64,000 bases of DNA, from positions 1 through 64,000 of the IMG/VR virus record IMGVR_UViG_3300030616_000025. The stretch is one strand, 5' to 3'. Shown here one piece after another: positions 742-40,627 of the stretch (its first letter is position 1; each line of letters starts with the position of its first letter). The notes under the pieces are model-generated. The model did no database searches. It worked only from the letters and a program-made list of their open reading frames with translations, and was not told the DNA's origin. A program made the position numbers and the translations under genes. Origin of the DNA: a virus.

Positions 742-999
742 ATGGAAGAAATCATGAGTATAAAGGTGAAAAAATTTAATTTTTTGTTGCATGCATCGTA
801 TTCTGTGGAAACAGAAAGCAATGAATACTCACTCTGTGTAACACCCACAGAGGCTGTAATCAATATTGAGACTAATACTAAGGGCAAACAAATGCAGACT
901 GTTAGCATTCCGCGAAATGTATTAGAATGCTTTTTGGATGAGATAACCTTAAATGGTTTGCCAAAACTTATTGCGTTTTCACAGAAAGCAACAACATGA
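742..999 (+). CDS. hypothetical protein
   Basis: Same GAAAGGAAAAGTT-ATG initiation context as at 169. Its stop overlaps the next start. Confidence 0.5.
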   Translation: MEEIMSIKVKKFNFLLHASYSVETESNEYSLCVTPTEAVINIETNTKGKQMQTVSIPRNVLECFLDEITLNGLPKLIAFSQKATT

Positions 1000-3503
1000 A
1001 CACCAAACCAGCGGAAAAGAAAAAAGTACTATTTATAGCAACACTTCCCTGCGTGAGACTGTGGCGCACGGCGAAAGTGCTTCAAAAGAACGGATGGGAA
1101 GTATATCTGGGGCAGATGCAATCCACGCTGACGGAGTATTTCAAGCTTGACTATTCGCCGTTCAAGGAAGTATTTGAAATGTCAAGCCGCGGAGGATTTC
1201 ACCATATCAAAGAATACTTCGACATAGTACATTCGCACAATGAACCGGATACGCTTTCCGCAATGGCGGCGCTAAGCATGAAAAATTCAAGCACGGGGCT
1301 TGTGCATGACTGCCATGATTTTGTAAGCGCAAAAGCCGGGGTAAGACTGCACGAACACGACAGGATAGTAGAGCTAATGGCTAATACGTTTGTAGACTTA
1401 GCCGTGTATTGCAGTGAGCATCAATATCAACACGTGCAGGGATTGATACGTGAGAACATGCCTAAGAGCGTAATCTTGTTTAACGCGCCGTTAGAAGAAT
1501 ATATACCTAAAACATTACCGGATAAAAAGGTCAATAAGAATAAACCAAAAATAGTGTACGCCGGTACGATCCGCGAGGTAAAAGAAAGTCACAGATACTT
1601 TATAGACGAGTTTATGAAAATACTGAAAATGGGATATGAACTGTATGTGTACGCGCCGCATGTGCCGAAGGAATACGACAAGATGTTCAGGGGGTTCAGG
1701 AACGCTCACAATATGGGACACTGCAATTACCCGGACTTAATCAAGGAACTAAGTCAATACGATTTCGGTATCATGCCGTTCCAGATTACCAGAGAAAATT
1801 ATCCGCACCTTAGACATGGATTGCCGAATAAGCTGTTTGAGTATTTTTCAGCAGGATTGCCCGTGATAAGCAAGGCGGGTATGGATGCTTCTAACGTGAT
1901 AATTGAGGGTGAAAAATTAGGATATGTATACAATGACATAGACGAAATTCGCACGGAAATACCTAAATTGTGGGATATAGAAGTACCGCGGTTCAAATGG
2001 ACAGCGGATAAGGAAGTCGAGAACAAACTACTCCCGGCGTATGAAGATATACGCGCATACAGGAAATACAATCAAGCAGACCCTAAGCGGGAAGTGAATA
2101 TCCGGGAAGTCAAGGGAAACGTATGTGTGATAGACGGTTGGAAGGATGGAGAAAAATTTACATACAAAGATGAATCCGGGGAAGAAAAGGAAAACATATC
2201 ACACGTATACGGCAAAACAAATCACGATAAAGATTTAATCATAGAATCTTTTATGCGGGAGATTGAAGCAGAGGGCGCATTACCGGATTATGTCGTGGAA
2301 ACATCGAAGGACGAAAAGGAGATAAAGAAACGTGCCGAAATGATACAGAAAAGACACAAGGCACGGCGCAAGGAAAGAAAAAAGGAAATAACAACACTCA
2401 TAAAAAACGGCAGGGGAAGAATACCGTATGATGAAAAAATGATACTCATTAGCGGTATGGTGTTATGCAAGAATGAGCAAAAAACAATAGAGAACACAAT
2501 AACCAGTCTGTATTATCTATGTGATGAAATCATAGTGCAGGACAATATGAGTACTGATGACTCAATGAAAATAGTGAAGAAATATCCTAAGTGCCGCACA
2601 TCTGAATTTGATATACAGCCGTGGGATTTTTCGGTGGCGCGGAACAATGCAAGCAAGCAATGCAGGGGGAAATACATAGCGGTAATTGACGCGGACGAAG
2701 AGCTTGATACTGACCCCGCTACGATACGTCAGCAGATCATAGACGATTATAACCGGGGATATATACAGCCGTACAATATGCACACGGTTCAAATAGGAGA
2801 TATGGGAACGCCGACAAGTCATCTAACGCAGATACGTATATATCCGAACAACGATGATTTTAAATGGGCGCGGAGAGAGCATAACCAGATAAAATTTCCA
2901 GACAATAAATATGTCATACAGAAGACGAATTGGCAGAACTTTCATTTTGGATTTCTTGATCCGGCGAAGAAAAAAGCGCGGGAAGAAAGAGCTAACACAT
3001 ATATAGAAATGCTCAAAGTCGAGCTTGCGGAAATGAAAGAGGAAGGTATTGAATTATTGCCGGAATTTGAAAAGGTCATCAATCTGACTAAGTACTGTTG
3101 CTTTATGAGCCGGGAAGATGAATGTCTGGAATTAGGTCGATGGGGATATGAGCAATTCAAGACGTTCCCGAAAACGAATCAGGGGATATTGAGCAGATTT
3201 TTAATAAGTTTTTCTAACGCTCTGATAATTGAAGGGAACTTTGACGAAGCCGAGGACGTACTGAATACATACACAAACCTGATGGGATCGATAGTCGATT
3301 CGTGTTTTTTAAAGCATGTTGTCTCGTACAGAAAGGGGCAGATAATATCATCGCTGATATGGGCGATAAAATACCTTGAACTATTGCAGATCGAACCTAT
3401 GCAGAATGCTTTTAATTATCAGATAACTACCGTATTCTGGGGAATGGTACAGAAGAAATTGCGTTGGCTGAAATGGTTAGTTGACAATTATATGGAGATA
3501 TGA
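996..3503 (+). CDS. bifunctional glycosyltransferase (GT4-like N-terminal half, GT2-like middle, helical-repeat tail)
   Basis: GT-B signature KLFEYFSAGLPVISKAGMD...GEKLGYVY. The GT-A part has ILISGMVLCKNEQKTIENTI...IIVQDNMSTDDS and the DxD-type motif AVIDADEEL. Confidence 0.8.
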   Translation: MNTKPAEKKKVLFIATLPCVRLWRTAKVLQKNGWEVYLGQMQSTLTEYFKLDYSPFKEVFEMSSRGGFHHIKEYFDIVHSHNEPDTLSAMAALSMKNSSTGLVHDCHDFVSAKAGVRLHEHDRIVELMANTFVDLAVYCSEHQYQHVQGLIRENMPKSVILFNAPLEEYIPKTLPDKKVNKNKPKIVYAGTIREVKESHRYFIDEFMKILKMGYELYVYAPHVPKEYDKMFRGFRNAHNMGHCNYPDLIKELSQYDFGIMPFQITRENYPHLRHGLPNKLFEYFSAGLPVISKAGMDASNVIIEGEKLGYVYNDIDEIRTEIPKLWDIEVPRFKWTADKEVENKLLPAYEDIRAYRKYNQADPKREVNIREVKGNVCVIDGWKDGEKFTYKDESGEEKENISHVYGKTNHDKDLIIESFMREIEAEGALPDYVVETSKDEKEIKKRAEMIQKRHKARRKERKKEITTLIKNGRGRIPYDEKMILISGMVLCKNEQKTIENTITSLYYLCDEIIVQDNMSTDDSMKIVKKYPKCRTSEFDIQPWDFSVARNNASKQCRGKYIAVIDADEELDTDPATIRQQIIDDYNRGYIQPYNMHTVQIGDMGTPTSHLTQIRIYPNNDDFKWARREHNQIKFPDNKYVIQKTNWQNFHFGFLDPAKKKAREERANTYIEMLKVELAEMKEEGIELLPEFEKVINLTKYCCFMSREDECLELGRWGYEQFKTFPKTNQGILSRFLISFSNALIIEGNFDEAEDVLNTYTNLMGSIVDSCFLKHVVSYRKGQIISSLIWAIKYLELLQIEPMQNAFNYQITTVFWGMVQKKLRWLKWLVDNYMEI

Positions 3504-4327: not shown

Positions 4328-4662
4328 AACACAATAACTGTCTTACAGAAGAAGATGAATTTGGAAAAGAATTAGCAAATGATTGGGGGTTTCAAGGCAA
4401 ATGGCCGATTTGTAGTTTTTGTAATAACCCAATGCGAATATGTTTTGCAACAACTGGAGATTGGAATGATGATTTTTCCGATAGAAAAAACCTATCAAGA
4501 CGCTTTGCTTTTTTTTGCGAATGCGATGAATGGGAAATGTGGAGACAAAAATTAAATCTTTGTTTTATAAATAAAATACCGATCACAGTAAAAGATTTAT
4601 CGGATATTTACAAGGGCAGATATGACAGAGATAAAAACAGGAGCGAACAAGACAATGAATAA
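4324..4662 (+). CDS. hypothetical Cys-rich protein
   Basis: ATGA overlap. CSFCNNP...CFATT...FFCEC pattern. Confidence 0.5.
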   Translation: MKHNNCLTEEDEFGKELANDWGFQGKWPICSFCNNPMRICFATTGDWNDDFSDRKNLSRRFAFFCECDEWEMWRQKLNLCFINKIPITVKDLSDIYKGRYDRDKNRSEQDNE

Positions 4663-5554
4663 ATATTTAGTGACAGCAGGACAGGGATTAGGAAATCAGA
4701 TTGAAACAATACCGCTGATTGAATGGCTGATACAGCATGACATAGATATAGATGTGTGCTATTGCCATCGCCCGAAAATAGACGGTGATCCGGGGAAAAG
4801 CAAAGTACTTGAAATGTACTGCGACAAAAGAAACATACCGTTCGAAATAAGCGACAACGGCAAGGTGGAATTTCCAGAGCACTACGAAGGGCAGTTAGTA
4901 GGATGTTGGACAGCGCCGAGGAAAGGAGTATATATATGCGCACAGGCGAACCGAAGCTATACTAACGAGATAATGGCGAATATGGACATTCTAAGACAGA
5001 TGAAGCTAACGGATAACGTAACAGACTGTCTTGCTGAAGTTATGCCCTTAGAATGGGAATGCGGGGTCGGACACGATATTGTGCTGTGCAACGGGGGATT
5101 CAACACAGATAAATGGCGCAGGAAGAAATACCCGCACTTTGAACAGCTTGCTGAAATGCTTCACATATTGGGCTACAGCGTGGTAAGCGTGGGAAGAAAA
5201 GACGAATACATACCCGGAACAGTAGACAAGACAGAGATAGGCATGGTAGAGACAGCGGAGATAATAGCGAACAGCCGAATGGGTATCTTTACCGACTCTG
5301 GGTGGTATCACTGGAAGGGCTTGATCGGGGGGAAAGGAATAGCGCTATTCACAGCAACGAACGTCAAAAAGAACTATCATCCGTTAGCGTATCCAGAAAT
5401 TACAGTTATGCAGAAGGGGCTTAAATGCCAGCCGTGCCAGTCTGAAACGTGGGAATGTACGGAGATGTGGCACAGGTGTACACAGTGGAGATGTCAGGAT
5501 ATAGAGCCGAAGAAGATAGTTAAAAATGTGCAGAAAATTTTAAAAATTACTTGA
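4655..5554 (+). CDS. glycosyltransferase family 9 (heptosyltransferase-like)
   Basis: LVTAGQGLGNQIETIPLI at the N-terminus. GIFTDSGWYHW...IALFTATN resembles the GT9 DSGpmHlA...lFG block, and a C-terminal CQPC...C...C cluster is present. The start could instead be 4622. Confidence 0.6.
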   Translation: MNKYLVTAGQGLGNQIETIPLIEWLIQHDIDIDVCYCHRPKIDGDPGKSKVLEMYCDKRNIPFEISDNGKVEFPEHYEGQLVGCWTAPRKGVYICAQANRSYTNEIMANMDILRQMKLTDNVTDCLAEVMPLEWECGVGHDIVLCNGGFNTDKWRRKKYPHFEQLAEMLHILGYSVVSVGRKDEYIPGTVDKTEIGMVETAEIIANSRMGIFTDSGWYHWKGLIGGKGIALFTATNVKKNYHPLAYPEITVMQKGLKCQPCQSETWECTEMWHRCTQWRCQDIEPKKIVKNVQKILKIT

Positions 5555-5578
5555 CATAAGCGAATAATGTGTTATAAT
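5551..5578 (+). promoter_or_regulatory. sigma70-type promoter P1 (TTGACA-N16-TATAAT)
   Basis: -35 at 5551-5556 and -10 at 5573-5578, both perfect hexamers. Confidence 0.6.
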
Positions 5579-6311: not shown

Positions 6312-6612
6312 TATTTTTGGGATACAAAACATGAAGAACGAATATTTTGAATGCGCTTGTCATTCACCGGAACACAGACTTGTGTTTACCTGTGATATAG
6401 GCGATGAGTTTTCAGAAATATGGACAGAGGTTTATTTGCATACATACGAAAATATTTTCAAGAAGATATGGACTGCAATTAAATATGTATTCGGGTATAA
6501 ATGTCAATGGGGGCATTTTGATTGTTTTGTTTTGCAAGAAAAAGATGCACGAAGATTAAGAGATATGCTTGATAAATTTATTCAAAAGATAAGCGATGAA
6601 AAAAATAAATAG
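6298..6612 (+). CDS. hypothetical protein
   Basis: ORF in the packed array with a CACH...C...C pattern. Start uncertain (6298 or 6331). Confidence 0.45.
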   Translation: MKNNNIFGIQNMKNEYFECACHSPEHRLVFTCDIGDEFSEIWTEVYLHTYENIFKKIWTAIKYVFGYKCQWGHFDCFVLQEKDARRLRDMLDKFIQKISDEKNK

Positions 6613-6904
6613 ACTTCCCGGCGACAAGGTTTTAGTTCGGCGCAAAGAACCGAAAAAGCAGTCAGACGGCGGGATACATTTACCCCAGACGGCGTGGGAG
6701 AAATACGAAGAAGGAATTGTCGTTATGGCGGGAGAAGGCAGACAGATGAAAAACGGGGAAGTAGTACCGATAACGGTAAAAATGGGTGACAAGGTTATAA
6801 TGGACAAGCACCGGGGAGAAGAATTTCAGATGAACGGAAAGGAAGTAACGATTATCAGAGAAAGACATATTTTATGTATTACTAATGCGAGGGACGAAGA
6901 ATGA
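6596..6904 (+). CDS. groES: GroES/Cpn10-like co-chaperonin
   Basis: LPGDKVLVRR..EPKKQSDGGIHLPQTAWEKYEEGIVVMAGEG...NGEVVPITVKMGDKVIM...GEEF..NGKEVTIIRERHILCI matches the Cpn10 pattern along its whole length (~100 aa). Confidence 0.75.
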   Translation: MKKINRLPGDKVLVRRKEPKKQSDGGIHLPQTAWEKYEEGIVVMAGEGRQMKNGEVVPITVKMGDKVIMDKHRGEEFQMNGKEVTIIRERHILCITNARDEE

Positions 6905-7104
6905 AACAAACACCGGAAATAATATCACTACAGGAGTGCAGAAATCGCGTACAAGAAAATAAACCTATAGGAAAATTGAATATAGCCTGTCCGAGATGTC
7001 ACGGCGGGATGATGATTAAAGAAGAAGTGACACGAATAACCGGCGCAGACAGACCGGAGATACGGCTAAGGTGCGATAATTGCGGGATAAGGGAAACTGT
7101 TTGA
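6901..7104 (+). CDS. zinc-ribbon protein
   Basis: CPRCHG...CDNCG pattern. ATGA overlap with the upstream gene. Confidence 0.5.
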   Translation: MKQTPEIISLQECRNRVQENKPIGKLNIACPRCHGGMMIKEEVTRITGADRPEIRLRCDNCGIRETV

Positions 7105-8906
7105 ACAAAATAGAAATCGAAAAACACATAGACGAAATGCTACAGGCGATAGCAGATACACGCATGATGCTATTCAGAGATCATCACATAAATACATCCG
7201 GCGATAGAATGTCGTTTGATAGTATGCCGTACATGAAGCAGATATACGAAGAAATATCAAGGCGAATCAGGCTAATGGGCGCGGCGCAGAACGGAAAAAC
7301 AGACTGGGCGACAATAGACTGTCTTTCAATGCTTGGACTTGGGCTAAACACATTCCACGTTTTCAGTGATGCAGTAAGTAAGCAAAAGTATTTTAATACA
7401 CGAGTTAATTTTCTGTGCGACCGAGTACCGCTGTACGCAGAAATGGAAGTCAACGGGAAATATCGCCGGAACATGAATGCCCGCAGAATGGGCGCGTCAA
7501 ACTGGCTGTATGCAATCAGCGGTTCAAAGACAACGTTCAGCTCTGACCCTGCGGATGTGGTTGTCGTAGACGAATACGATGAATGCAACAAAGAAAATAC
7601 AATGATGGCGTGGGACAGAATACAGAACAGCCCGTATAAATTTGACAGACTACTTGCTAACCCGACCGTGGCAAATCAGGGCATAGCGTTACAAATGGAA
7701 GAAAGCAAATACTATGTCTATCACTGGGAATGTGATGAATGCGGGGAAATGATACCGCCTGACTTTTTCAAGGTTGTATGCCACGACGTAATAGACAAAG
7801 AAGGAAATCATTTAGGCTATGAGCTGTACGATACAGAATGGCACGACGGGATAGACAGAGATATATATATCAGGTGTCCGCACTGCAATCACTTGCAGAC
7901 AAGGGAAAAATGGGACGAGAATACATACCGGGGGAAATGGATAGCGAAATACCCGGAGAAAGAAATAGCCGGATACTGGATACCGCTGATACTCAAACTT
8001 GACACACAGATAAGCGAACTCTGGCATGACCTGAAAATATCAGAACACGATATAGTCCAGATGCAGTGGTTTTATAATAAACGACTCGGACTGCCATATG
8101 AAGGACACGGCGCGAAAATTACAAGCGACATGATACACCGGAGTATGGGAGAGTACAATACTCTACAGAGTTACACAGAAGAGCATGGAGCGGTGGCGGG
8201 GGTAGACGTAGGCGCGTACTATGACATGCAGATAGACGTTCATGTTCAGACAGAGGAAAAGGAAAGAAAGAAAATGACACTCTGGGCGGGGAGATGCGAA
8301 AGCCTGGATGATGTTGAAAGCCGGATAAAGCAATACAACGTAAAGCTTGCCGTGTTCGATTCACAGCCGGAATATAACGCTGTAAGAGAATTTCAATCAG
8401 ACATGTACGGTAAATGTCGAGTAGCATTATGCCAGATAATGAAAGCACGGACGGGGAAATTAAAAATAATGGGCGTTGATTGGGACAGGGACAACGACAT
8501 AGTCAAGGTAGATCGTGACTGGCTGTTGACGGAATCACAGCGCATGTGGCAGAACAATATCTGTATTGTGCCGAAGGATTACAAAAGTCTGGCAAACGGA
8601 TTCTGGGAAGATAGTCTTGTCAGCATAACGAAATACAAGGACGAAAAAGAAGACATATACACATGGAGCAAGGCTGAAGGCAAAGACCACTTCAGGTTTT
8701 CAGATGCTTTTGCTATGCTTGCGTGGATGGAGAAAAAGGAAATAATAATAATCGGCGATTTAGACTTTGTAAGGGCAAAGCTTGAATCAGAAGGACACAG
8801 CGAGGAAGATATTGAAAGAGGCGTACAGCGGGTAGCGGACGAAGGATACAAAGAGGAAGATGTATTGCAGTATAGATTTGGCTTTAGAAATCGGAGGAAG
8901 AGATGA
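7080..8906 (+). CDS. terL: large terminase subunit (lambda GpA-like)
   Basis: Walker A MGAAQNGKT, Walker B VVVVDEYDE, internal zinc-ribbon CDECG...CPHCNH. Size and position fit. The exact start is uncertain (TTG 7080, TTG 7102 or a later ATG). Confidence 0.85.
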   Translation: MRDKGNCLNKIEIEKHIDEMLQAIADTRMMLFRDHHINTSGDRMSFDSMPYMKQIYEEISRRIRLMGAAQNGKTDWATIDCLSMLGLGLNTFHVFSDAVSKQKYFNTRVNFLCDRVPLYAEMEVNGKYRRNMNARRMGASNWLYAISGSKTTFSSDPADVVVVDEYDECNKENTMMAWDRIQNSPYKFDRLLANPTVANQGIALQMEESKYYVYHWECDECGEMIPPDFFKVVCHDVIDKEGNHLGYELYDTEWHDGIDRDIYIRCPHCNHLQTREKWDENTYRGKWIAKYPEKEIAGYWIPLILKLDTQISELWHDLKISEHDIVQMQWFYNKRLGLPYEGHGAKITSDMIHRSMGEYNTLQSYTEEHGAVAGVDVGAYYDMQIDVHVQTEEKERKKMTLWAGRCESLDDVESRIKQYNVKLAVFDSQPEYNAVREFQSDMYGKCRVALCQIMKARTGKLKIMGVDWDRDNDIVKVDRDWLLTESQRMWQNNICIVPKDYKSLANGFWEDSLVSITKYKDEKEDIYTWSKAEGKDHFRFSDAFAMLAWMEKKEIIIIGDLDFVRAKLESEGHSEEDIERGVQRVADEGYKEEDVLQYRFGFRNRRKR

Positions 8907-9493
8907 AAGGAACAGTAATCCTTAACTACGGTTGTCCGAGAAGCGGGACTACTTTTATATGGTTTCTACTTCGGGCGGGAACGGGATACACATACGGTAA
9001 GATAGGCGAAAACGATCCTTGTCATCCTTGCAACAGTGGGACAGGTCTATTGCATATCAAGAAAACGTTTCGAGATTATAACGTTGTTTTTATTCGCACG
9101 GTGAGAAATCCCATACAGATATTCGAATCATTCAGACATGCGCACAAAACTAACGACGGCGAAATAGGAAAAAAAGCAGACATAGAAATCAAGCGATACA
9201 TACAAAACGAAGAGCGCAACACAAAAGAACAGGCGGGGAAAGTAAGAATATTAACAGTCAAATTTGACATGCTTTCAAACGATTCTTACGTGGAAAAAGT
9301 AATGACAACATTTAAGAAACACTTTCCGAACGCAGAGCATAATACAAATATTTTGCGGAAATATATACACAAGAATTTTAATCACTTCCCCGTCAGGCCC
9401 GGCAAGTTGCAAAGCGGGGTAAAAGACCGACAGTATCTTAGCGAGACAGAAAGACAGGAAATAATGCAGTGGTATAAGGAAAGCGTAAAATGA
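8903..9493 (+). CDS. sulfotransferase-family protein
   Basis: N-terminal PAPS-binding-type loop NYGCPRSGTTFIWFLL, plus VVFIRTVRNP (3'-phosphate-binding-like RxxRNP). Confidence 0.65.
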   Translation: MKGTVILNYGCPRSGTTFIWFLLRAGTGYTYGKIGENDPCHPCNSGTGLLHIKKTFRDYNVVFIRTVRNPIQIFESFRHAHKTNDGEIGKKADIEIKRYIQNEERNTKEQAGKVRILTVKFDMLSNDSYVEKVMTTFKKHFPNAEHNTNILRKYIHKNFNHFPVRPGKLQSGVKDRQYLSETERQEIMQWYKESVK

Positions 9494-10623
9494 ACATACT
9501 ATGTATCGTAATAGACTGCGGGCGGTTTGACTCTTGGGGCTGTAACGGGTTCAACAGGAATACTCCGAACATAGACAATCTTGCGGAGAAAAGCATACTG
9601 TACACGAACGCATATACTACAGCACCGTATACCCCGGCGGCGATAGCATCACTGTTCACAGGTAAATATCCATACGAGCACGGGATAAGGACAATGTATG
9701 GCAGTTGTCTTGATTCAGATGTTAAGACAGTACCGGAGATACTTCAGGGGCAGGGGTGGAATACGGCAGGGTTTGTCGGCTATGCAGGGCTATTGAGTTA
9801 CTACGGTCTGGACAGGGGCTTTAACTTTTTCGACGAAGATTCGGATTTAAGCAAAAACTGGGGAAAGACAAAAGCAGGGTGGAAAGGTAACGACTGGCGC
9901 AAGATGTATACAAGCTATTGCAAAAATCTAAAGAAAGATAACAATTTTATATTCGCACATTACTTTTTTGCTCACACAGGCGGGGAGAAAGCACTGCCGG
10001 AAGAATACAAAAAAGCAGACACATCAAGACACAAATATTTTCAGTACTACGACAAAAAAATAGAATGGTTTGATAAGGAATGGCTACCGCTGATACTTGA
10101 GCCGTGGGACTTGGATAATACAGCGGTGATAATGCTTGCGGATCACGGGGAATGTTTCGATGTCAAAAAAGAGCCGGGAGGACACCGAACAAATCTATTT
10201 CAGGATACAGTTCACATACCGCTGATGATACACGATATTGTAATCGAGGGTGGCGGTATAGACAGCAAATTGAAAAGCAATATAGATATATTCAGCAATA
10301 TTACCGAATGCAGTCATACAGCAGATACGATTTACTTCGAAACAACAAACGAAGACAAACCAGATCAACCGACATTCCGGGCGGGACTGACGGACGGAAA
10401 GAAAAAAGTAACCGCCGAGGGAGAAAATATAGGAGAGATTATAAACATAGAAGGGTGCTACGAAGTCGACGAGGAAAAGGAAAAAGAAATAGACTTAGAC
10501 CAGGATTGCGGAAAGCTGTTTCAAGAACTCATGGCAAACGAGGAAATGAAGCGAGAAATGAACGTCAAATGGGACGCGCAGGAAGCGCATATCGAAACCT
10601 TAAAGCAGTTGGGGTATATGTAA
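9490..10623 (+). CDS. sulfatase / alkaline-phosphatase-superfamily protein (possibly a phosphotransferase)
   Basis: ILCIVIDCGRFD metal site, YTTAPYTPAAIASLFTGKYPYEHG, MLADHGE. The C/S-x-P-x-R formylglycine motif is absent. Confidence 0.75.
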   Translation: MNILCIVIDCGRFDSWGCNGFNRNTPNIDNLAEKSILYTNAYTTAPYTPAAIASLFTGKYPYEHGIRTMYGSCLDSDVKTVPEILQGQGWNTAGFVGYAGLLSYYGLDRGFNFFDEDSDLSKNWGKTKAGWKGNDWRKMYTSYCKNLKKDNNFIFAHYFFAHTGGEKALPEEYKKADTSRHKYFQYYDKKIEWFDKEWLPLILEPWDLDNTAVIMLADHGECFDVKKEPGGHRTNLFQDTVHIPLMIHDIVIEGGGIDSKLKSNIDIFSNITECSHTADTIYFETTNEDKPDQPTFRAGLTDGKKKVTAEGENIGEIINIEGCYEVDEEKEKEIDLDQDCGKLFQELMANEEMKREMNVKWDAQEAHIETLKQLGYM

Positions 10624-11705
10624 TGCAAGTAAAATTTATAGACCTTGAAAAACTACACGAACCGATAATGCCGGAAATAGCACAGGCGATAGATAGCGTT
10701 GTCAGCGATAACGCTTTTATCGGCGGGAAATATGTAGAAGAATTTGAACAGGCATTCGGGAAATACCACGAAAGTAAATGTATAAGCTGTAACAGCGGGA
10801 CAGACGCGTTGATACTGGCATTGAAGGCGTTGGGAATAGACGAAGACAGCCGTGTTATTGTGCCAGATAATACATTTATAGCGACGGCAAACGCGGTAAG
10901 TGCATTAGGCGGTGTTCCTATATTCGCGGAAACAAACGACGAATATCTGATAACCGCGGAAGGAATAAAAGAAGCATATTATTCAGAGGTAGATGCAATC
11001 ATAGTAGTACACCTGTACGGAAATCCCTGTGACATGGATAGCATAATAGATGTTGCGAATGAATACAATCTGCCGATAATAGAGGACTGCGCGCAGGCTC
11101 ACGGTGCGACATACAAAGGAAAGAAAGTAGGAACATTCGGGGCGTGTGGATGTTTCAGTTTCTATCCGACAAAAAATCTTGGCGCAATGGGAGACGGCGG
11201 GGCTGTAATCACGGGAAACGCACAGCATGAAAGATTTATGAGAATCCTCAAAAATAACGGGCGCATGGATAAATATGAATATCTGGCAGAAGGAATCAAC
11301 AGCAGACTTGACGGTATACAAGCGGCTGTACTGACGGAGAAGTTAAAGCACCTTGACGAATTGAATTATCTGCGCAGGAAAAATGCGGGAATATACTACG
11401 ATGAACTAAAAGATATTGATGAGATAAAAATAATCACGCAGTACCGAGAAGAAAAAATGTGCGTGTATCATCAGTACGTCATAGAAGCAGGATCAAGAAA
11501 TGATTTGCAGTCATATTTGGCTTTATTCGGAATAGAGACAGGAATATACTATCCGTGTGCATTGACCGGAACAAAACCGTATTACAAGCAGGAATTAAAC
11601 GAAGCAGAAAATTTTAACATACTTAGCTTACCTATGCATCCGATGTTGACGGAAGAAGAAATAATATACGTCTGTGATAAGATAAAGGAATTTTACGATG
11701 TGTGA
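10623..11705 (+). CDS. DegT/DnrJ/EryC1/StrS-family PLP-dependent sugar aminotransferase
   Basis: FIGGKYVEEFEQAF, CNSGTDALILALKALGI, IIEDCAQAHGA, FSFYPTKNLGAMGDGG (lysine motif). The start is the ATG overlapping the upstream TAA, not the track's 10152. Confidence 0.9.
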   Translation: MQVKFIDLEKLHEPIMPEIAQAIDSVVSDNAFIGGKYVEEFEQAFGKYHESKCISCNSGTDALILALKALGIDEDSRVIVPDNTFIATANAVSALGGVPIFAETNDEYLITAEGIKEAYYSEVDAIIVVHLYGNPCDMDSIIDVANEYNLPIIEDCAQAHGATYKGKKVGTFGACGCFSFYPTKNLGAMGDGGAVITGNAQHERFMRILKNNGRMDKYEYLAEGINSRLDGIQAAVLTEKLKHLDELNYLRRKNAGIYYDELKDIDEIKIITQYREEKMCVYHQYVIEAGSRNDLQSYLALFGIETGIYYPCALTGTKPYYKQELNEAENFNILSLPMHPMLTEEEIIYVCDKIKEFYDV

Positions 11706-11961
11706 ATACTGCGACTGGTTTAAGCACCCGGAAACAAAACCGCTTATAATTCATGATGAAACAGCCGATTATCTTATAGTTGAATGTCCGATAGAAAGAA
11801 AACCGTTAGTTGTTTTCAAGCGGCACAAGGAAGATATAAAGTATATGGATATGATTGAAGCTATCGCAAGAGTGGGAACGCTGTTCGGGCCGACGTGCAA
11901 AATAAGAACGACCGACAATATTCATGCATGTTTTTATGTGGAGGATGCGCAGAATGTATGA
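11698..11961 (+). CDS. hypothetical protein
   Basis: ORF overlapping the upstream stop. No clear motif. Confidence 0.4.
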   Translation: MCEYCDWFKHPETKPLIIHDETADYLIVECPIERKPLVVFKRHKEDIKYMDMIEAIARVGTLFGPTCKIRTTDNIHACFYVEDAQNV

Positions 11962-12310
11962 GTATTTTATAGACTCTATACCGCCTTCATTAAATGCTTA
12001 TCTTGGAAAATCCGGGAAGTGGTATAAATATCAAGCAGATAAAAAGAAATGGGATTTATTGATGTTTGTTTCAATATCAGTCAATAGACCAGAAAAGCCA
12101 CTACCAAAAGCAAGAGTTATTTTAAGTTATCATTTCCCAGACAACAGAAGGCGTGATGCAGATAATTATTCTGGCAAACTCATATTAGACCCATTAGTTA
12201 AATATGGAGTCTTGCAGGATGATAGTTTTAAAAATGTGAAGTTGGAACTTATGGCAGAATTCAAAAGCGAAACTCCCGGATTAAACATCTTTATAGAGGA
12301 ATTGCTATAA
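11954..12310 (+). CDS. rusA: RusA-family Holliday junction resolvase
   Basis: PPSLNAY...RRRDADNYSGKLILDPLVKYGVLQDDS. GGAGG lies 9 nt upstream of this ATG. Confidence 0.8.
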   Translation: MYEYFIDSIPPSLNAYLGKSGKWYKYQADKKKWDLLMFVSISVNRPEKPLPKARVILSYHFPDNRRRDADNYSGKLILDPLVKYGVLQDDSFKNVKLELMAEFKSETPGLNIFIEELL

Positions 12311-12312
12311 CA

Positions 12313-12504
12313 ATGCCGACATATAGTTTTCAATGTCCGAAGTGCAAATATACAAAAGAGGAATTTCTGCCGATGAATTACAGTACCTTAATAAAGTGTC
12401 CGAAATGCGGGAAGAAAATGCAACAGCAAATAGATTGCGGGGCGGGAGTGATATTTAAAGGCAAGGGTTTTTATGAGACAGATTATCGGAGGAAGAAAAA
12501 ATGA
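12313..12504 (+). CDS. FmdB-family zinc-ribbon protein
   Basis: MPTYSFQCPKC...CPKCG...KGKGFYETDY is the typical CxxC_CxxC_SSSS layout. Confidence 0.7.
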   Translation: MPTYSFQCPKCKYTKEEFLPMNYSTLIKCPKCGKKMQQQIDCGAGVIFKGKGFYETDYRRKKK

Positions 12505-12989
12505 GTGTAGTATGTTGCAAGATAAAAAAAGACAAGATCGAAATAGCCGCCGATACGATAGAGGTTTATGATTGGACTCAAAAAAAAAGCAGTTCAAAGC
12601 TGATAAAAACAAATAATATGATTATTGGCATGGTAGGCGATTGTATGGAGGCAAGCCGTTTCATGCATTATTGCACAACAAATAAACCACGACTGGCGGA
12701 TACATATTCTATTATGCTTTTTTTGTCCGAATTTTCGGAATGGATGATGAACAAGTTTAAGGTTTCTGATATTGAGAATGATTATATGTTGATATTTGAC
12801 AAGAAAGCATTTAGAATGCTTGGTGGACATGTCGACGAAATAACAGATTATTATGCAATAGGTGCGGGAATGGATTATGCATTATCGGCATTATATCTTG
12901 GACATGGTGTAAAAAAGGCAGTCAAAACAGCGTGTGAATTATCTATATATTGTGAAGAGCCTATAGAATATTATTATATAAGGAAATAA
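12501..12989 (+). CDS. hypothetical protein, possibly an HslV/proteasome-beta-like Ntn-hydrolase fold
   Basis: The order of blocks resembles HslV: SVVCCKIKKDKIEIAADT, IIGMVGDCMEA, YYAIGAGMDYALSALYLG, then IYCEEPIEYYYI. Eye alignment only. Confidence 0.35.
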   Translation: MSVVCCKIKKDKIEIAADTIEVYDWTQKKSSSKLIKTNNMIIGMVGDCMEASRFMHYCTTNKPRLADTYSIMLFLSEFSEWMMNKFKVSDIENDYMLIFDKKAFRMLGGHVDEITDYYAIGAGMDYALSALYLGHGVKKAVKTACELSIYCEEPIEYYYIRK

Positions 12990-13646: not shown

Positions 13647-14505
13647 TTATTCAAAAACATTACCGAATGATTTTAGGTTGTATTGGATGGCTGATTTGCA
13701 TATTGGTATGGCGGGTGTCAAGGAAAAACTCATTAAAGATTTATTTGCAAGAATAAAACGAGATGATAACGCCCGAATAGCATTAGGTGGTGATCTAATT
13801 GAAGCCGCCCCTGTGGGACATCCGTATTTTGATATAGATGTTCATGGTGGGGATTATGCGGTAACAAGCAAACAGGTAGATAGGGTTTGCGAATTGCTTG
13901 ATGGATTGCAGGACAAAATATTGTTTAATCTTGTCGGAAATCATGAACTTCGAATAAAAAACATTATGGATGTTGGTGCGGCAATAAATCAAAGACTTGG
14001 GATTGATGTTCCGTGCGGCAATGTCGATATTGTCTGCACATTGACAGAGAAAAAACACGATGATTATCCTGCAATAAAATTTTATGCTCATCATGGAGCG
14101 GGTAGCGTTAATTCGCAAGCGGGTGATTTAGACCAGATATACAGGAATGATGCAAGACGCGTAAAGAGAAAGCTTCGGTTCAAAAGAGCAGATTGTATTT
14201 TAATGGGTATGGCTCATATACACAAGATAAGAATATGCAAACCCGTTAAACAGATGATGATTATTGGCGACAAAGATAAAAGCGTTAAGCAGGAATACCC
14301 CGAAGCCATATTTACTTCTGATGGGGCTATAGAGGAAAATAGCCGTTGGTATTTTTCTACAGGTGCATTTTTTGGGTCACAAGTAGAGGGAATAGATACT
14401 TATGCCAGTAAATACATGTATGATCCGTTACAGCTTGGGTGCGTCAAAATATACGTAGAAGACGCAAAGGTAAAAAATGTCGAGCCGGTAATTATGGGAA
14501 ATTAA
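13633..14505 (+). CDS. calcineurin-like metallophosphoesterase
   Basis: DLHIG, GGDLIE, VGNHE, AHHGAG and MAHIH motifs in the canonical order. Confidence 0.8.
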   Translation: MLIADYSKTLPNDFRLYWMADLHIGMAGVKEKLIKDLFARIKRDDNARIALGGDLIEAAPVGHPYFDIDVHGGDYAVTSKQVDRVCELLDGLQDKILFNLVGNHELRIKNIMDVGAAINQRLGIDVPCGNVDIVCTLTEKKHDDYPAIKFYAHHGAGSVNSQAGDLDQIYRNDARRVKRKLRFKRADCILMGMAHIHKIRICKPVKQMMIIGDKDKSVKQEYPEAIFTSDGAIEENSRWYFSTGAFFGSQVEGIDTYASKYMYDPLQLGCVKIYVEDAKVKNVEPVIMGN

Positions 14506-14531
14506 CGGTAAACTTTTTTAAAGGAAAAAGG

Positions 14532-14927
14532 ATGGAAGTACAAGACATTAAGGTATACGTAGCCGGTGCATTACAGAACCCGTCCCAAATCAAGTATCTT
14601 GGCAATTCGCGGAAGATGATAAAGGGTGCGAAAGATATACTTGTAAAATATGGGCTTACTCCGTTTTGTCCGGCTGTTGACATGCTGTTCTTTCTTGGAC
14701 TTGAAAACGACGAGGAAATAACCAGAGATATGATAGTAAAATACAGCATGTATTGGCTTATGGTATGCGATATAGTATTTGTATTGCGCGGGTGGGAAGA
14801 TTCAGAAGGTACAAAGCACGAAATAGCGAAAGCCACAGAGCTTGGAATTCCAGTTGTGTATTACGACTATGCATGGTTAGAGAAAGAGGCAAGGAGCGTA
14901 ATTCTTGAAAGACAAAAAGCGGTATAA
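14532..14927 (+). CDS. DUF4406 / nucleoside 2-deoxyribosyltransferase-like protein
   Basis: KVYVAGAL at the N-terminus and VLRGWEDSEGTKHEIAKATELGIPVVY at the C-terminus. Confidence 0.5.
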   Translation: MEVQDIKVYVAGALQNPSQIKYLGNSRKMIKGAKDILVKYGLTPFCPAVDMLFFLGLENDEEITRDMIVKYSMYWLMVCDIVFVLRGWEDSEGTKHEIAKATELGIPVVYYDYAWLEKEARSVILERQKAV

Positions 14928-15642: not shown

Positions 15643-15867
15643 ATGCGCAAATGGAAATGGACGCCTGAAAAACAAATGAAACAATACAAACAAATAAGCG
15701 TCTGGGAATACTTAGCGGAATATATGATAGCACTTATTATCCTGGCAATACCCATGAAATACCTTTGGAATATAGCAATGCCGGGAATAGGTTTAGTCGA
15801 GATAACATACGTACAATCATTGTGTCTGCTTATCATGATACGGATAATGATAGGGCTGAATCTATGA
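15643..15867 (+). CDS. small membrane protein
   Basis: Two hydrophobic segments ([11 protein letters not shown] and [15 protein letters not shown]). Confidence 0.45.
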
Positions 15868-16322
15868 TACATGAAACAGCGATAGTCGAGTCGGGCGCAA
15901 TAATCGGGGAAGGGACAAAGGTATGGCATCACGCCCATATTATGAGCGGCGCACAGATAGGAAAGAATTGTGTGATAAGCAAAAACGTTTTTATAGCGGG
16001 GAATGTAATAATAGGTGACAACACAAAAATACAGAACAATGTCAGCGTGTATTCTGGTGTTACGATATGGGATAATGTCTTTATCGGGCCGAGTGTTGTT
16101 TTTACAAACGTCAAAAAACCGAGGGCGTGGAAAAAGCAGGAATACGAAAAGACACTTATTAAAAGCGGCGTTACGATCGGAGCGAACAGTACAATTATCT
16201 GCGGAATAGAAATAGGAGAAAAAGCCTTTATCGGGGCGGGTTCAGTTGTTACCAAAAACGTAGACGACTTGGCGATAGTGTTAGGTAATCCGGCGCGGAA
16301 AGTGGGGTATGTAGAAGAATGA
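15864..16322 (+). CDS. left-handed beta-helix (hexapeptide) sugar N-acetyltransferase, WbpD/WlbB/QdtC-like
   Basis: Runs of hexapeptide repeats ([42 protein letters not shown]) ending in [14 protein letters not shown] overlap. Confidence 0.85.
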
Positions 16323-17059
16323 GCCTTCCTGAACCGTACTACGAGAACGACCTTGTAACGATATACCACGCAGACTGCTTGGATATACTGCCGGAGATAG
16401 AAAAGGTTGATTTGGTTTTGACTGACCCGCCGTATGGGATAGGGATAGCAAAGAAGGGATCAATAGGAGGTGTTGGCAAAAATGGAAAACATGACAATGT
16501 GAATAACTACGGAAAATCGAATTGGGATAAACACCCACTTTCTTTAGAACAATTCAATAAGATTAAAAGCAAATCAAAAAATCAAATAATTTTTGGTTAT
16601 AATTATTTTGCAAATATACTTCCACCAACAAACGGATTGATAGTATGGGATAAAAAATGCCAAAACAATTGGTGGGATAATTTTTCTGATGGGGAAATAG
16701 CGTGGACGTCTTTTAAAAAGCCGTTAAGAATATTTCGGTATCTTTTTCTTGGGTGTAATGGCAACAATGAAATAACCAGAGGCAAAAAGAAACACCCGAC
16801 ACAAAAACCGCTTGTGCTGATAGGTTGGATGGTGGAGAATTGGACTGACAAAGCAGACATAATTCTCGACCCCTTCCTCGGCTCTGGCACAACGGCAGTG
16901 GCGTGTATGCAATTAGGCAGGAAGTGTATAGGCATAGAGATAGAAGAAAAATACTGTGAAATAGCGGCAAAGCGTTGCGAAGAAGCACGGACGGGATTAA
17001 CCCCTATAGAGCAGGAAATGTATGAAGGAAAAACTTTATTTGATGCGGAAGAAGAATGA
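16319..17059 (+). CDS. DNA methyltransferase (N6-adenine/N4-cytosine, DPPY type)
   Basis: [35 protein letters not shown]. Confidence 0.85.
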
Positions 17060-18702
17060 CAACAATCACCATCCTAACAACCTATTACGAACGGATAGAA
17101 TATTTACAGCGGACAATAGAAAGCATACATAGCGCATTAAAGAGGAAACCGCAGTATGATGTCAGACACTGTATATACGATGATTGCAGTAAGCAGAATA
17201 TAATATCTTCCGCTCAATTTGAAAAGTATATATTACCCAATTATCATATAGACATAAAACGCGGAACAGAAAACAATGGACTTTATCTCTATTGGCGAAC
17301 AGTAACAGAAGCAATGTCAATGTGCGGGGAATGCGATACGGTTATATTCTGGGCGGATGATTTCATAGCTTGCGAGAATTACTTTGATAAGCTGTTTTCG
17401 ATTTACAATAATGATATAATACTGAACGATAGTCTGGATTACAGATACAACGGATTTCAGACGCCCGGACTTGACGGTACGTTTGTACTTCCGTATACAT
17501 GGTATAAATTACTGGGAAATAAAATACTGCCTATCAGAGCGGAGATAATAGAACAAGCGCCGGAACATTTACGAGGCAGTCATGTATGGGAACAGACGAC
17601 AAAGCGCTTATTGACAATACCCGAAGCGCAGATATGGAGTCCGAACTATTCGCTTAGAAAACATATCGGCGAACAGCGGATATTGAATCCATTCAAAACG
17701 AGGGATATAAAAACAGTAAAATGGATAGACGAAGCTAAGAAGCCGAAATTACAACTTATTGACTTTTGGAGAGGCGATGATGCGCATAGGGAAGAAAAGA
17801 AGGTGTTGCTTGTAGTGCCGGGGGAAATAAGAAAAAACATTCAAACAGTATCGACATATATAAATCTATGCAGGAAATACAAACGGGTGGACGTATTGAT
17901 AGATACAAACGATACTGCAAATGCAGTGTTTTATATATACATTACGAAATGGCTTGGCATGAAAGCATTTTGTATTCAGGGAAAAACAGCGCTGATAGAC
18001 AATCTGTTTTCTAACTACGATATAGTGTTAAGCGATTTTTCATACAGCAAGGGAGATAAAACAGAACAGCAGAATATCGTCAAGCAATACACGAACACAT
18101 TAAATCAGATCGGGAATTACAGAAAAGTAAAACCGGCACACATACATAACAATACATTACCTATTGACTGGGGTAAAATCCGGGGAAAGAAATTTAAAAA
18201 GGAATACGACATACTCATTATAAATCAAGCGCCGGATAACTGGAACGGCACAAGAAGAAAGCACGGACATATACGGCAATTAGCGCTTGAACTGATAGAC
18301 AAGGGGCGCAAGGTAGTACAGCCGGACACAGGATACAACAGGCTAAGAGATATTCCGGTTGTCGAGGGTGACAATATGGACTTGATAGCACAGAGCAAAC
18401 TTGTAATAGGGAATAACTGTTGGCAGACAGAATTTGCTAACGTTATAGGTGTAAGGAACATAACCATATTCACGGCAGAGGATCCGGCAGTATGGAGAGA
18501 CAGGGGATTTCACAGGTTCAGTCTTAACATTATTCCCGGCAGACAAGCAGGATGCGCACCGTGTGAAACAAGGGGGAAGTTAAAGGAGAAATGTCCGAAG
18601 TGGATTTGCACACAGTATGATTTAAGCAAAATAGTAAACGTTGCAATAGAAATGTTGTCGGGGGAATTTATAAAAGTCAAAGGGGATTGTATATGGCAAT
18701 GA
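17056..18702 (+). CDS. two-domain glycosyltransferase (GT2-like N-terminus, GT9-like C-terminus)
   Basis: ITILTTYYERIEYLQRTIESI...IYDDCS at the N-terminus. VIGNNCWQTEFANVIG...ITIFTAEDP and CAPC...C...C at the C-terminus parallel the 4655 gene. Confidence 0.6.
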   Translation: MTTITILTTYYERIEYLQRTIESIHSALKRKPQYDVRHCIYDDCSKQNIISSAQFEKYILPNYHIDIKRGTENNGLYLYWRTVTEAMSMCGECDTVIFWADDFIACENYFDKLFSIYNNDIILNDSLDYRYNGFQTPGLDGTFVLPYTWYKLLGNKILPIRAEIIEQAPEHLRGSHVWEQTTKRLLTIPEAQIWSPNYSLRKHIGEQRILNPFKTRDIKTVKWIDEAKKPKLQLIDFWRGDDAHREEKKVLLVVPGEIRKNIQTVSTYINLCRKYKRVDVLIDTNDTANAVFYIYITKWLGMKAFCIQGKTALIDNLFSNYDIVLSDFSYSKGDKTEQQNIVKQYTNTLNQIGNYRKVKPAHIHNNTLPIDWGKIRGKKFKKEYDILIINQAPDNWNGTRRKHGHIRQLALELIDKGRKVVQPDTGYNRLRDIPVVEGDNMDLIAQSKLVIGNNCWQTEFANVIGVRNITIFTAEDPAVWRDRGFHRFSLNIIPGRQAGCAPCETRGKLKEKCPKWICTQYDLSKIVNVAIEMLSGEFIKVKGDCIWQ

Positions 18703-19768: not shown

Positions 19769-20020
19769 ATGCCGTATGTCAAGCAAATAAATAGAGATTC
19801 ATTGGATTACATTGTACAGGCAATGAGATTGGCAGAGATAAAAGCCGACGGCGATTTAAACTATATTCTATTCGCCTATTGCAAAAGACATATCAAGCCG
19901 GGATATAATAACTATAAGAATTTTTGCAGTGAATTAAGACAATGCGCAACAGAGATAGAAAGACGGCTATTAGCGCCATACGAAGACCAGAAAATTGTAG
20001 AAAATGGAGATGTGATATGA
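19769..20020 (+). CDS. hypothetical protein
   Basis: ORF in the packed array. Confidence 0.5.
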   Translation: MPYVKQINRDSLDYIVQAMRLAEIKADGDLNYILFAYCKRHIKPGYNNYKNFCSELRQCATEIERRLLAPYEDQKIVENGDVI

Positions 20021-23723: not shown

Positions 23724-23758
23724 ATATAATTATCTAATTGTTAGAAGGAGGTAAAATT

Positions 23759-24421: not shown

Positions 24422-24529
24422 ATGGATTTATTGAATTTAATAAAAAAGCGTAGGATGAATGGATACGCAAAAGATGAATTAAAACACAAAAACGACATAT
24501 GGGTTGAGAAAGTAGCGAGTCTATTATGA
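24422..24529 (+). CDS. small hypothetical protein (35 aa)
   Basis: Fills the gap exactly. TAAATG start and ATGA overlap with the MurB-like gene. Confidence 0.3.
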   Translation: MDLLNLIKKRRMNGYAKDELKHKNDIWVEKVASLL

Positions 24530-40624: not shown

Positions 40625-40627
40625 AGA

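Follow-up and report, generated by a model that had tools for sequence, protein, structure and literature searches.

Two overlapping open reading frames (ORFs) of a tailed phage, ST1 (8903-9493, + strand) and AP1 (9490-10623, + strand), probably encode independent tailoring enzymes of a phage glycan-building gene set, rather than a pair that writes and erases sulfate or a dedicated two-gene unit. The DNA analysed, hereafter the window, is a tailed-phage genome fragment of 64,000 nt with a G+C content of 41% (positions 1 to 64,000 of IMG/VR virus record IMGVR_UViG_3300030616_000025). The original prediction on this DNA described a sulfotransferase-like ORF whose stop overlaps the start of a sulfatase-fold ORF, and both are real genes with exactly these boundaries. 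Their junction is an ATGA at 9490-9493, in which the AP1 start codon (ATG, 9490-9492) lies over the ST1 stop codon (TGA, 9491-9493); ST1 belongs to a family of 137 clusters, and AP1 matches PF00884 at 1.2e-28.

The 196-aa product of ST1 was assigned to the sulfotransferase fold from a family alignment, Pfam and profile matches and an AlphaFold2 (AF2) model. On its own it matches PF13469 (Sulfotransfer_3) with an E-value of 1.6e-5 and 25.7 bits, and it has no match in PHROGs or NCBIfam. A search seeded by ST1 and its one detectable homologue yielded 33 proteins, and a filter-free HMMER search of 1.84 billion representatives defines the family as 137 clusters at E<=1e-3, nearly all of 180-250 aa; PF13469 is matched by 29 of 32 family members (E<=0.01; best 7e-11). 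Residues 11-17 read CPRSGTT, which had been proposed to be a loop binding 3'-phosphoadenosine-5'-phosphosulfate (PAPS). This proposal is now backed by the family profile and by the other PAPS motifs, R68/S76 and R165-x-G167, and the residues needed for PAPS binding are present. Across 32 homologues G10, P12, R13, G15, T16, T17, H41, P42, R65, R68 and S76 are invariant, and C11, E36, R165 and G167 are nearly so. These residues make up the motifs of the protein: a 5'-phosphosulfate-binding loop (G10-C-P-R13-S-G-T-T17), E36, H41-P42, the 3'-phosphate-binding pair R68/S76, and R165-x-G167. In the family profile, PRsGTT aligns with PKSGTT of SULT1A3 (residues 47-52) and with GVPRSGTT of TPST, and R68/S76 align with the 3'-phosphate binders R130/S138 of SULT1. 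E36 and H41 are the candidates for the catalytic base, which is expected to be a His or Glu 20-30 residues or more past the loop; His108 of SULT falls six residues past H41 in the hidden Markov model (HMM) alignment.

The structural comparisons point the same way. The AF2 model (predicted local distance difference test, pLDDT, 94.3) has a strand at residues 4-10 followed by a helix at 14-25, and its top folds in the PDB are all sulfotransferases (SULT1C2, S4, SULT2A8, SULT1B1, TPST2, NDST1, Stf9 and Stf0), with a probability of 1.0 and template-modelling (TM) scores of 0.5-0.6. Against a viral structure library, the named matches are mostly sulfotransferase-family proteins of phages and giant viruses. 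Two figures weigh against the assignment: the Pfam score of ST1 alone lies just below the 27-bit cut-off, and the E-values of the fold matches are weak, around 1e-3. From motifs and model we nevertheless predict that ST1 is a sulfotransferase-type enzyme that would use PAPS. Like the Sulfotransfer_3/TPST/CurM-ST enzymes (PF13469; related to the PF00685 cytosolic SULTs), it has the same fold, the same spacing of the 3'-phosphate Arg and Ser, and a C-terminal R-x-G, and it shares the Arg-type 5'-phosphosulfate loop PRSGTT with TPST and CurM ST. It differs from them in forming a distinct family and in its size, about 200 rather than 250-300 aa, so most of the substrate-binding insertions are missing. 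The identical 196-aa protein is already on record from a 69-kb metagenome contig. In one 1.1-kb Logan contig (122-835, + strand), about 115 ST1-like residues (76% identity to P0057) are followed in frame by about 120 residues that match adenosine 5'-phosphosulfate (APS) kinase; this is a single short assembly, which may be a real fusion or an assembly chimera, and as a link to PAPS supply it is too weak to use.

In eight of nine independent contigs examined, members of the ST1 family lie among glycosyltransferase, sugar-nucleotide or methyltransferase genes. On jumbo-phage contigs (177-231 kb) they sit within a run of methyltransferase genes and genes of glycosyltransferase (GT) families GT61, GT64, GT8 and GT2; on a short contig, the relative adjoins GT-D-like and Gly_transf_sug genes; and on a 54.6-kb phage contig it has a GT1 gene on one side and the genes for the prohead protease and the major capsid protein on the other. 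One IMG/VR contig (L012, 3161-4390, + strand) combines an ST1-family domain and an S-adenosylmethionine (SAM)-dependent methyltransferase domain in a single 409-aa protein, encoded between GT1 and GT2 genes. On a second, the relative adjoins an NAD-epimerase/dehydratase and a methyltransferase, on a third it lies between a nucleotide-diphospho-sugar transferase and a GT-D-like gene, and on a fourth it has no annotated neighbours. A pattern scan of bacterial and archaeal genomes (one per species, 185,579 species) returned no full-length ST1 relative, only matches of P-loop length. These gene neighbourhoods, together with the genome scan, suggest that the ST1 family is a glycan-tailoring enzyme family, so far seen only in phage-like and viral contigs.

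The 377-aa product of AP1 has the S1-sulfatase fold according to its PF00884 match, sequence alignments and AF2/Foldseek comparisons. Among solved structures, the best 60 of 62 sequence matches are all S1 sulfatases or phosphonate monoester hydrolases (PMHs), and a profile built from AP1 and its relatives gives full-length matches to these two groups down to 1e-68. The AF2 model (pLDDT 77.6, high in the core) has their two-domain fold, and Foldseek aligns it with S1 sulfatases at TM-scores of 0.61-0.73. Matches to NCBIfam models (arylsulfatase, PehA and choline sulfatase) are all far under cut-off. LtaS, EptA, OpgB and BcsG do not occur among the best 60 of 62 PDB sequence matches, the top 50 Foldseek matches or the NCBIfam hits; the nearest approach to a membrane transferase among the matches is a weak hit to YejM (E 0.007).

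The signature of S1 sulfatases is [CS]-x-[PA]-x-R, and their catalytic residues have been listed (PMC5066984). As the original prediction had noted, AP1 keeps the sulfatase fold without the formylglycine motif: residues 45-65 read A-P-Y-T-P-A-A-I-A-S-L-F-T-G-K-Y-P-Y-E-H-G and hold no C/S-x-P-x-R. In pairwise HMM alignments to solved S1 sulfatases, T48-P-A-A-I52 falls on S-T-P-A-R and C-A-A-S-R, so that the nucleophile column contains Thr48 and no Cys or Ser in a CxPxR context. The conserved Arg is indeed gone, but it is replaced by Ile52 and not, as had been suggested, by Ala. In the AF2 model, T48 opens a helix (48-57) that follows a strand (36-42), which is the nucleophile position of the fold.

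The other positions of the active site were mapped with the S1 residues numbered as in Pseudomonas AtsA (PAS). The metal ligand Asp13 corresponds to D9, which is invariant in the relatives, and the metal ligand Asp14 to C10, a position that is never Asp in the relatives. The nucleophile Cys51 corresponds to T48, with Thr in 16 of 18 sequences and Ser in the other 2 of the 18, and Arg55, which stabilises formylglycine, corresponds to I52; this position varies between H, I, F and L within the clade and is His in 10 of the 17 other relatives. Lys113 and His115, which bind sulfate, have no counterpart in AP1 or in its relatives, and G-K-M-H of 7oz8 (the S1 G-K-x-H) aligns with non-conserved AP1 residues. 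The active-site residue His211 corresponds to H162 and the metal ligands Asp317/Asn318 (Asn/His) to D218/H219, all of them invariant, and the sulfate-binding Lys375 corresponds to H232 (His in 16 of 18). Because Thr48 occupies the nucleophile position and both the formylglycine motif and the sulfate-binding Arg, Lys, His and Lys are missing, we predict that AP1 is not a sulfatase. Thr is found at the nucleophile in 30 of 59 PF00884 seed sequences, it is unable to yield formylglycine, and Thr-type proteins of this family are not to be called sulfatases (PMC5066984).

The residues that AP1 does have point to phospho-threonine chemistry. Its D/T/D/H metal site and two further histidines form what we take to be the constellation of Thr-based phosphoryl-transfer enzymes, as in those of the EptA/MCR-1 type. 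With LtaS, EptA/MCR-1, OpgB and BcsG, which decorate glycans with anionic or zwitterionic phospho-groups, AP1 shares a Thr/Ser nucleophile at the start of a helix, a metal site of D/E, T, D and H, and additional His residues. The analogy to LtaS, EptA and OpgB in the original prediction thus stands for the Thr nucleophile with its D/D/H metal site, but not for the architecture or the ancestry: AP1 lacks both a transmembrane domain and a signal peptide, whereas those enzymes use membrane phospholipid donors outside the cytoplasm, and its nearest relatives are the S1/PMH enzymes. Addition of a phospho-alcohol by AP1, as originally proposed, is one possibility among several. From the S1 sulfatases and S1_0 phosphonate monoester hydrolases (SulfAtlas; PAS/AtsA, PMH, PehA), with which it shares the two-domain fold, D9, D218, H219 and His162, AP1 differs in having Thr for Cys/Ser, Ile (His in relatives) for Arg55 and His for Lys375, in lacking Lys113/His115 and the second Asp, and in being shorter and apparently cytoplasmic.

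AP1 also resembles the nucleotide pyrophosphatases/phosphodiesterases (NPPs; PF01663), which have a Thr nucleophile in T-x-P-x-H...T-G-x-Y-P-x-x-H-G and a soluble catalytic domain. The core motif of the AP1 relatives, T-x-P-S-H-x-S-x-x-T-G-x-Y-P-x-x-H-G, is similar to the NPP signature, and this explains why AP1 residues 5-68 match PF01663 (7e-6, 26.3 bits, cut-off 23) over the N-terminal motif only. Beyond that motif AP1 departs from NPP and is of the sulfatase type, its C-terminal subdomain included (PF16347 in relatives). NPPs have a bimetallo Zn site (D/H/H plus D/T/D/H), and in AP1 a second site for metal could be provided by H162 and H232. Several points weigh against phosphoryl transfer by AP1. 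Since all its characterised relatives in the S1/PMH branch are formylglycine-using hydrolases, the case for Thr-based transfer has to be drawn from other branches of the superfamily; AP1 has Ile52 where most relatives carry His and sulfatases Arg; and no gene for donor synthesis (cytidylyltransferase, kinase), nor one for PAPS synthesis, was found in the window. In addition, the authors of the sulfatase classification regard a sulfatase with Ile or Leu at the Arg position as possibly inactive (PMC5066984).

The location and the relatives of AP1 tie it to glycan synthesis. Its only close homologue, P0001 (37% identity), is encoded on a 45-kb viral contig (IMGVR_UViG_3300033148_004581, here L001). 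Both phage copies start at the first beta-strand (M1-N-I-L-C-I-V-I-D9 in AP1); because no N-terminal extension precedes this strand, AP1 is predicted to be soluble and cytoplasmic, with neither membrane anchor nor signal peptide. About half of the bacterial relatives have an N-terminal extension that reads like a signal peptide, a lipoprotein box or a membrane segment. Scans of IMG/VR and metagenome contigs brought up one close relative of AP1, on the contig of P0001, and a few distant ones. Between positions 996 and 26970, the window has about ten glycan-related genes in common with L001, at 26-46% identity and in a different order, on contigs that are otherwise dissimilar. This common set comprises AP1, GT4, GT2 and GT1 glycosyltransferases, a pyruvyl transferase, a MurB-like protein, a Methyltransf_24 and a PF01555 methyltransferase, a GT-like protein of 548 (L001, 570) aa and a protein of 228 (L001, 242) aa.

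ST1, the neighbouring DegT-type aminotransferase and a hexapeptide acetyltransferase have no counterpart in the retrieved part of L001, where the P0001 gene directly follows an ATP-grasp gene. When both proteins were compared by tblastn with 21 loci, no conserved ST1-AP1 pair emerged, as neither relative was found beside the other. The 294-aa genes downstream of the ST1 homologues in two contigs (L004 and L007) have no relation to one another, and the one in L004 has none to AP1 or to AP2, a second protein of this fold described below. The adjacency of ST1 and AP1 is thus specific to this phage, which speaks against the functional pair of the original prediction. Given the gene set common to L001, from which ST1 and DegT are missing, and with no pair elsewhere, AP1 looks like a core member of a phage glycan module to which ST1 and DegT were added. 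Among the distant relatives, two IMG/VR contigs of 77 and 109 kb (L017, 6760-9197, and L016) encode a tandem pair of AP1-like proteins (24% identity) in which the nucleophile stands in Ser-L-P-S-H or Ser-L-P-V-A. Their neighbours include two cytidylyltransferase-like (CTP_transf_like) genes, a B12-binding radical SAM enzyme, the alpha and beta subunits of a thiamine pyrophosphate (TPP)-dependent E1 enzyme, a hexapeptide transferase, a phosphonate-binding protein, a methyltransferase and a GT1. These may be viral phospho- or phosphono-glycan clusters, and they offer a hint, but only that, that AP1-like enzymes of this type handle phospho(no)-groups activated with cytidine di- or monophosphate (CDP/CMP).

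We therefore propose the following for the two enzymes. ST1 would be a minimal PAPS-dependent sulfotransferase in which the PRSGTT loop, R68/S76 and R165-x-G167 hold PAPS, E36 or H41 acts as the base, and sulfate is passed to a hydroxyl or amine of a sugar. AP1 would be descended from the S1 sulfatase/phosphonate-monoester-hydrolase branch, with an active site rebuilt for phosphoryl transfer: D9, T48, D218 and H219 would hold the metal, the T48 alkoxide would attack a phosphorus centre to give a phospho-threonine intermediate, and H162 and H232 would stand where the sulfatase His and Lys stand. The outcome would be the cleavage or transfer of a phosphodiester-linked group. The substrate of AP1 is most likely a phage-made glycan or the nucleotide-activated precursor of one, since the enzyme appears to be cytoplasmic and its gene accompanies those for glycosyltransferases, methyltransferases, a pyruvyl transferase and a MurB-like reductase.

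The remaining genes of this set, all on the + strand, are as follows. Directly after AP1 comes a DegT/DnrJ/EryC1-type, pyridoxal phosphate-dependent sugar aminotransferase (10623-11705; PF01041, 1e-98), for which the top NCBIfam models are PseC/LegC-like and without exception under cut-off. A hexapeptide-repeat acyl/acetyltransferase (15765-16322; PF00132, 1e-25) is its likely partner in making an N-acyl amino sugar, and together they point to an N-acetylated 4-amino-4,6-dideoxyhexose; a 4,6-dehydratase was not seen in the window. Several genes are those common to L001. They include an 835-aa glycosyltransferase (996-3503) in which GT4/GT1 and GT2 domains are fused, GT4 and GT2 being separate in L001, and the 548-aa protein with a weak GT2 match (17056-18702), which has a paralogue at 4622-5554. 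A TylF-like Methyltransf_24 methyltransferase (19942-20601), a 228-aa protein with no assigned function (21482-22168; 42% identity to the L001 gene), a polysaccharide pyruvyl transferase (22701-23723; PF04230, 1.5e-13), a MurB-like, flavin adenine dinucleotide (FAD)-dependent (enolpyruvyl) reductase (24526-25356; PF02873, PF01565) and a GT1-family glycosyltransferase (26086-26970) are likewise shared. A second Methyltransf_24 methyltransferase lies at 23738-24421. The presence of the pyruvyl transferase and the MurB-like reductase in both phages suggests a pyruvate-ketal or lactyl-ether sugar as a further anionic decoration.

Two more genes repeat the themes of ST1 and AP1. AP2 (20589-21485) encodes a shorter, 298-aa protein of the alkaline-phosphatase superfamily (PF00884, E 0.009) that matches AP1 weakly. 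Its motifs run LDACRFD ... ADHGDMLGEKGLWGHG ... VPLLV ... LDSLGYM, followed by a tail of about 55 aa; its nucleophile region, SVGCQTIEW, is atypical, and its LGY[ILM] recurs as a conserved motif at the C-terminal end of AP1 and the AP1 relatives. ST2 (61345-61896) encodes a small sulfotransferase of 183 aa and of another subfamily (PF00685, 26.6 bits, cut-off 22; PF13469, 29.5 bits, cut-off 27), with a GLERSGTS loop and R-D-x-x-E-V-x-x-S; its similarity to ST1 is confined to the P-loop. By these motifs the phage is predicted to have two sulfotransferases. Weak GT9- and GT8-like proteins occur in the window as well. The set amounts to about six glycosyltransferase-type genes, at least two sugar-type methyltransferases and one DNA-type (PF01555), one pyruvyl transferase, one MurB-like protein, one aminotransferase, one acetyltransferase, two sulfotransferases and two alkaline phosphatase (AP)-fold proteins, and all of the encoded proteins appear soluble. 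A role in a PglZ-like defence system was considered and dropped, as PADLOC gave no match for ST1, AP1, AP2, ST2 or two neighbours.

ST1 and AP1 belong to a tight string of genes that includes a packaging gene. The large terminase subunit gene (gpA type; 7080-8906, + strand; PF05876, 5e-16; phrog_675, 8e-60) ends in an ATGA at 8903-8906, where the ST1 ATG (8903) lies over the terminase stop codon (TGA, 8904-8906), and just upstream of it is a Cpn10/GroES-like co-chaperonin gene (6596-6904, + strand). AP1 meets the DegT gene in a TAATG at 10621-10625, with the AP1 stop codon (TAA, 10621-10623) over the DegT ATG at 10623. The public gene call starts DegT at ATG 10569, which gives a 55-nt overlap with AP1; the start at 10623 seems likelier because of the 1-nt TAATG overlap and because in the resulting shorter protein the Pfam match starts at residue 17. 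A promoter-like site, TTGACA-16 nt-TATAAT with an extended -10 TG (5551-5578, + strand; 12/12 as a match to the sigma-70-type consensus only), occupies the one sizeable gap between genes ahead of the GroES-terminase-ST1-AP1-DegT string, and no convincing + strand terminator was found between it and 11705. The ATGA and TAATG overlaps, the promoter-like site and the lack of a convincing terminator before 11705 suggest that the GroES-like, terminase, ST1, AP1 and DegT genes are probably one transcription unit.

Further along, the window encodes a portal protein (29813-31465), a fused protease-major capsid protein of 878 aa (33335-35971, + strand), a tape measure protein and tail proteins. The capsid protein has only distant relatives (identity <=35%), and neither near nor distant DNA similarity to positions 7000-12500 was found among 50,697 phage records. 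Because of the late-gene position of ST1 and AP1 and of the ST1 homologue that adjoins capsid genes in another phage, a virion protein from the same late gene string is the most likely acceptor of the whole glycan set, although we hold this with low certainty.

Other explanations have to be weighed against independent tailoring by ST1 and AP1. It is possible, if unlikely, that AP1 is purely a hydrolase in precursor supply or by-product removal, for instance a nucleotide-sugar pyrophosphatase/phosphodiesterase (a PseG/LegG-like step after DegT and the acetyltransferase), a sugar-phosphate phosphatase, or an enzyme that removes the 3'-phosphoadenosine-5'-phosphate (PAP) left by the sulfotransferases. 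The closest characterised relatives of AP1 are hydrolases, and the characterised soluble Thr/Ser members of the superfamily that we know of are hydrolases or mutases; its N-terminal 64 residues match PF01663 with a T...TG-x-YP-x-x-HG motif common to NPP, and the DegT enzyme is most similar to PseC/LegC. This match is limited to the N-terminal motif, however, no nonulosonic-acid synthase or CMP-sugar synthetase was found among the window proteins scanned, and the genes shared along with AP1 encode glycosyltransferases, not the aminotransferase or the sulfotransferases. We are more doubtful that ST1 and AP1 form one unit acting on one acceptor, to which they would add sulfate and a phospho-alcohol (glycerol-phosphate, phosphoethanolamine, phosphocholine or a phosphonate), the latter from a soluble CDP/CMP donor by way of phospho-Thr. 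The Thr nucleophile, metal site and two further histidines, presumably EptA/MCR-1-like, would suit this chemistry, the remaining genes of the module all add groups to sugars, distant viral relatives of AP1 adjoin two CTP_transf_like genes, and the ST1 and AP1 genes are translationally coupled. Yet their adjacency is not conserved, the nearest characterised relatives of AP1 are hydrolases, no cytidylyltransferase or other phospho-alcohol donor gene was found in the window, and the known transferases of this kind are, as described in bioRxiv 10.64898/2026.09.23.753746, membrane-anchored and use phospholipid headgroups, whereas AP1 is predicted to be soluble.

An AP1 without catalytic activity, acting as a scaffold or as a subunit that binds glycan or phosphate, is improbable. 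Ile52 in place of the His or Arg near the nucleophile and Cys10 in place of the second Asp could be read in this way, but position 52 is variable and position 10 never Asp throughout the clade, and D9, T48, H162, D218, H219 and H232 are common to the phage copies and to bacterial relatives with 25% identity. Least probable by far is that AP1 is a genuine sulfatase and that the pair writes and erases sulfate, a scheme that the original prediction had itself set aside: although the overall fold and the best sequence matches are those of S1 sulfatases, AP1 has kept none of Arg55, Lys113, His115 and Lys375, neither a formylglycine-generating enzyme nor an anaerobic sulfatase-maturating one was found in the window, and a Thr nucleophile cannot give formylglycine (PMC5066984). 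A different question is that of the acceptor, and here we judge it rather unlikely that the glycan set, with ST1 and AP1, decorates phage DNA (as a hydroxymethyl-pyrimidine glycan hypermodification) or a host envelope polymer instead of virion proteins. In DNA-hypermodifying phages, glycosyltransferase genes adjoin terminase and sugar-modifying genes (bioRxiv 10.1101/2023.12.21.572611), and the window has PF01555 DNA methyltransferase-type and nucleoside deoxyribosyltransferase-like genes. However, neither a TET/JBP-type dioxygenase nor a thymidylate-synthase-like hydroxymethylase turned up among the approximately 55 window proteins scanned against Pfam, which speaks against DNA glycosylation based on hydroxymethyl-pyrimidines; genes of the membrane-bound flippase or polymerase type were not seen either; and the ST1 homologue of another phage adjoins prohead protease and major capsid genes.

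Taken to its furthest, independent tailoring by ST1 and AP1 would give a phage particle (or DNA) coated with a methylated, polyanionic glycan that carries sulfate added by two sulfotransferases, pyruvyl or lactyl groups and a phosphodiester-linked group, and AP1 would be the first soluble, cytoplasmic, S1-derived phospho-substituent transferase to draw on a nucleotide-activated donor rather than a membrane lipid; this is a speculative picture that we think quite unlikely to hold in full. Glycosylation of virions by phage enzymes has been documented for mycobacteriophages, according to PMC12582341 (citing Freeman et al. 2023), and glycan hypermodification of DNA is documented in phages (bioRxiv 10.1101/2023.12.21.572611). 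Like those systems, the window has soluble glycosyltransferases and sugar-tailoring enzymes among late, packaging or structural genes, but its set is much larger. No sulfotransferase or AP-fold enzyme linked to either kind of phage glycosylation was found in the literature searched, and neither term appears in bioRxiv 10.1101/2023.12.21.572611. Neither a characterised Thr-type S1-like enzyme nor a soluble AP-fold transferase dependent on a CDP-alcohol came up in the same searches, and they gave no paper that joins the terms phage-encoded, sulfatase and sulfotransferase.

Phage sulfotransferase annotations and Thr-bearing PF00884 proteins are both on record already, so the finding is not new in kind. 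Its novelty lies in a compact sulfotransferase family so far seen only in phage-like contigs and a predicted cytoplasmic, S1-derived Thr enzyme, both set in an unusually rich repertoire of phage glycan tailoring. To our knowledge, and in the literature searched, no bacteriophage has yet been demonstrated to make sulfated glycans, and the ST1 family would be a direct handle for testing whether any does. AP1 appears to illustrate how a sulfatase scaffold can be re-tooled for phosphate chemistry, from Cys to Thr and from Arg and Lys to His. One practical consequence is that PF00884 hits in viral genomes should be neither annotated as sulfatases nor counted as sulfur-cycling auxiliary genes. Decoration of virions by the products, if it occurs, would matter for phage-host recognition, for the immune recognition of therapeutic phages and for particle stability.

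In the fused protease-major capsid protein, the first ~360 residues have no PHROG family match, and residues ~365-878 match fused head-maturation-protease/major-capsid families. Between the head and tail genes, eight successive ORFs of 172-235 aa (37945-42953, + strand) follow one another; those starting at 39345, 40004 and 40628 have weak mutual similarity, and the two that were scanned have no family match. Among the glycan and DNA-metabolism genes are found an HslV-family peptidase-like protein (12501-12989, + strand) and a DUF4406/nucleoside 2-deoxyribosyltransferase-like protein (14439-14927, + strand).

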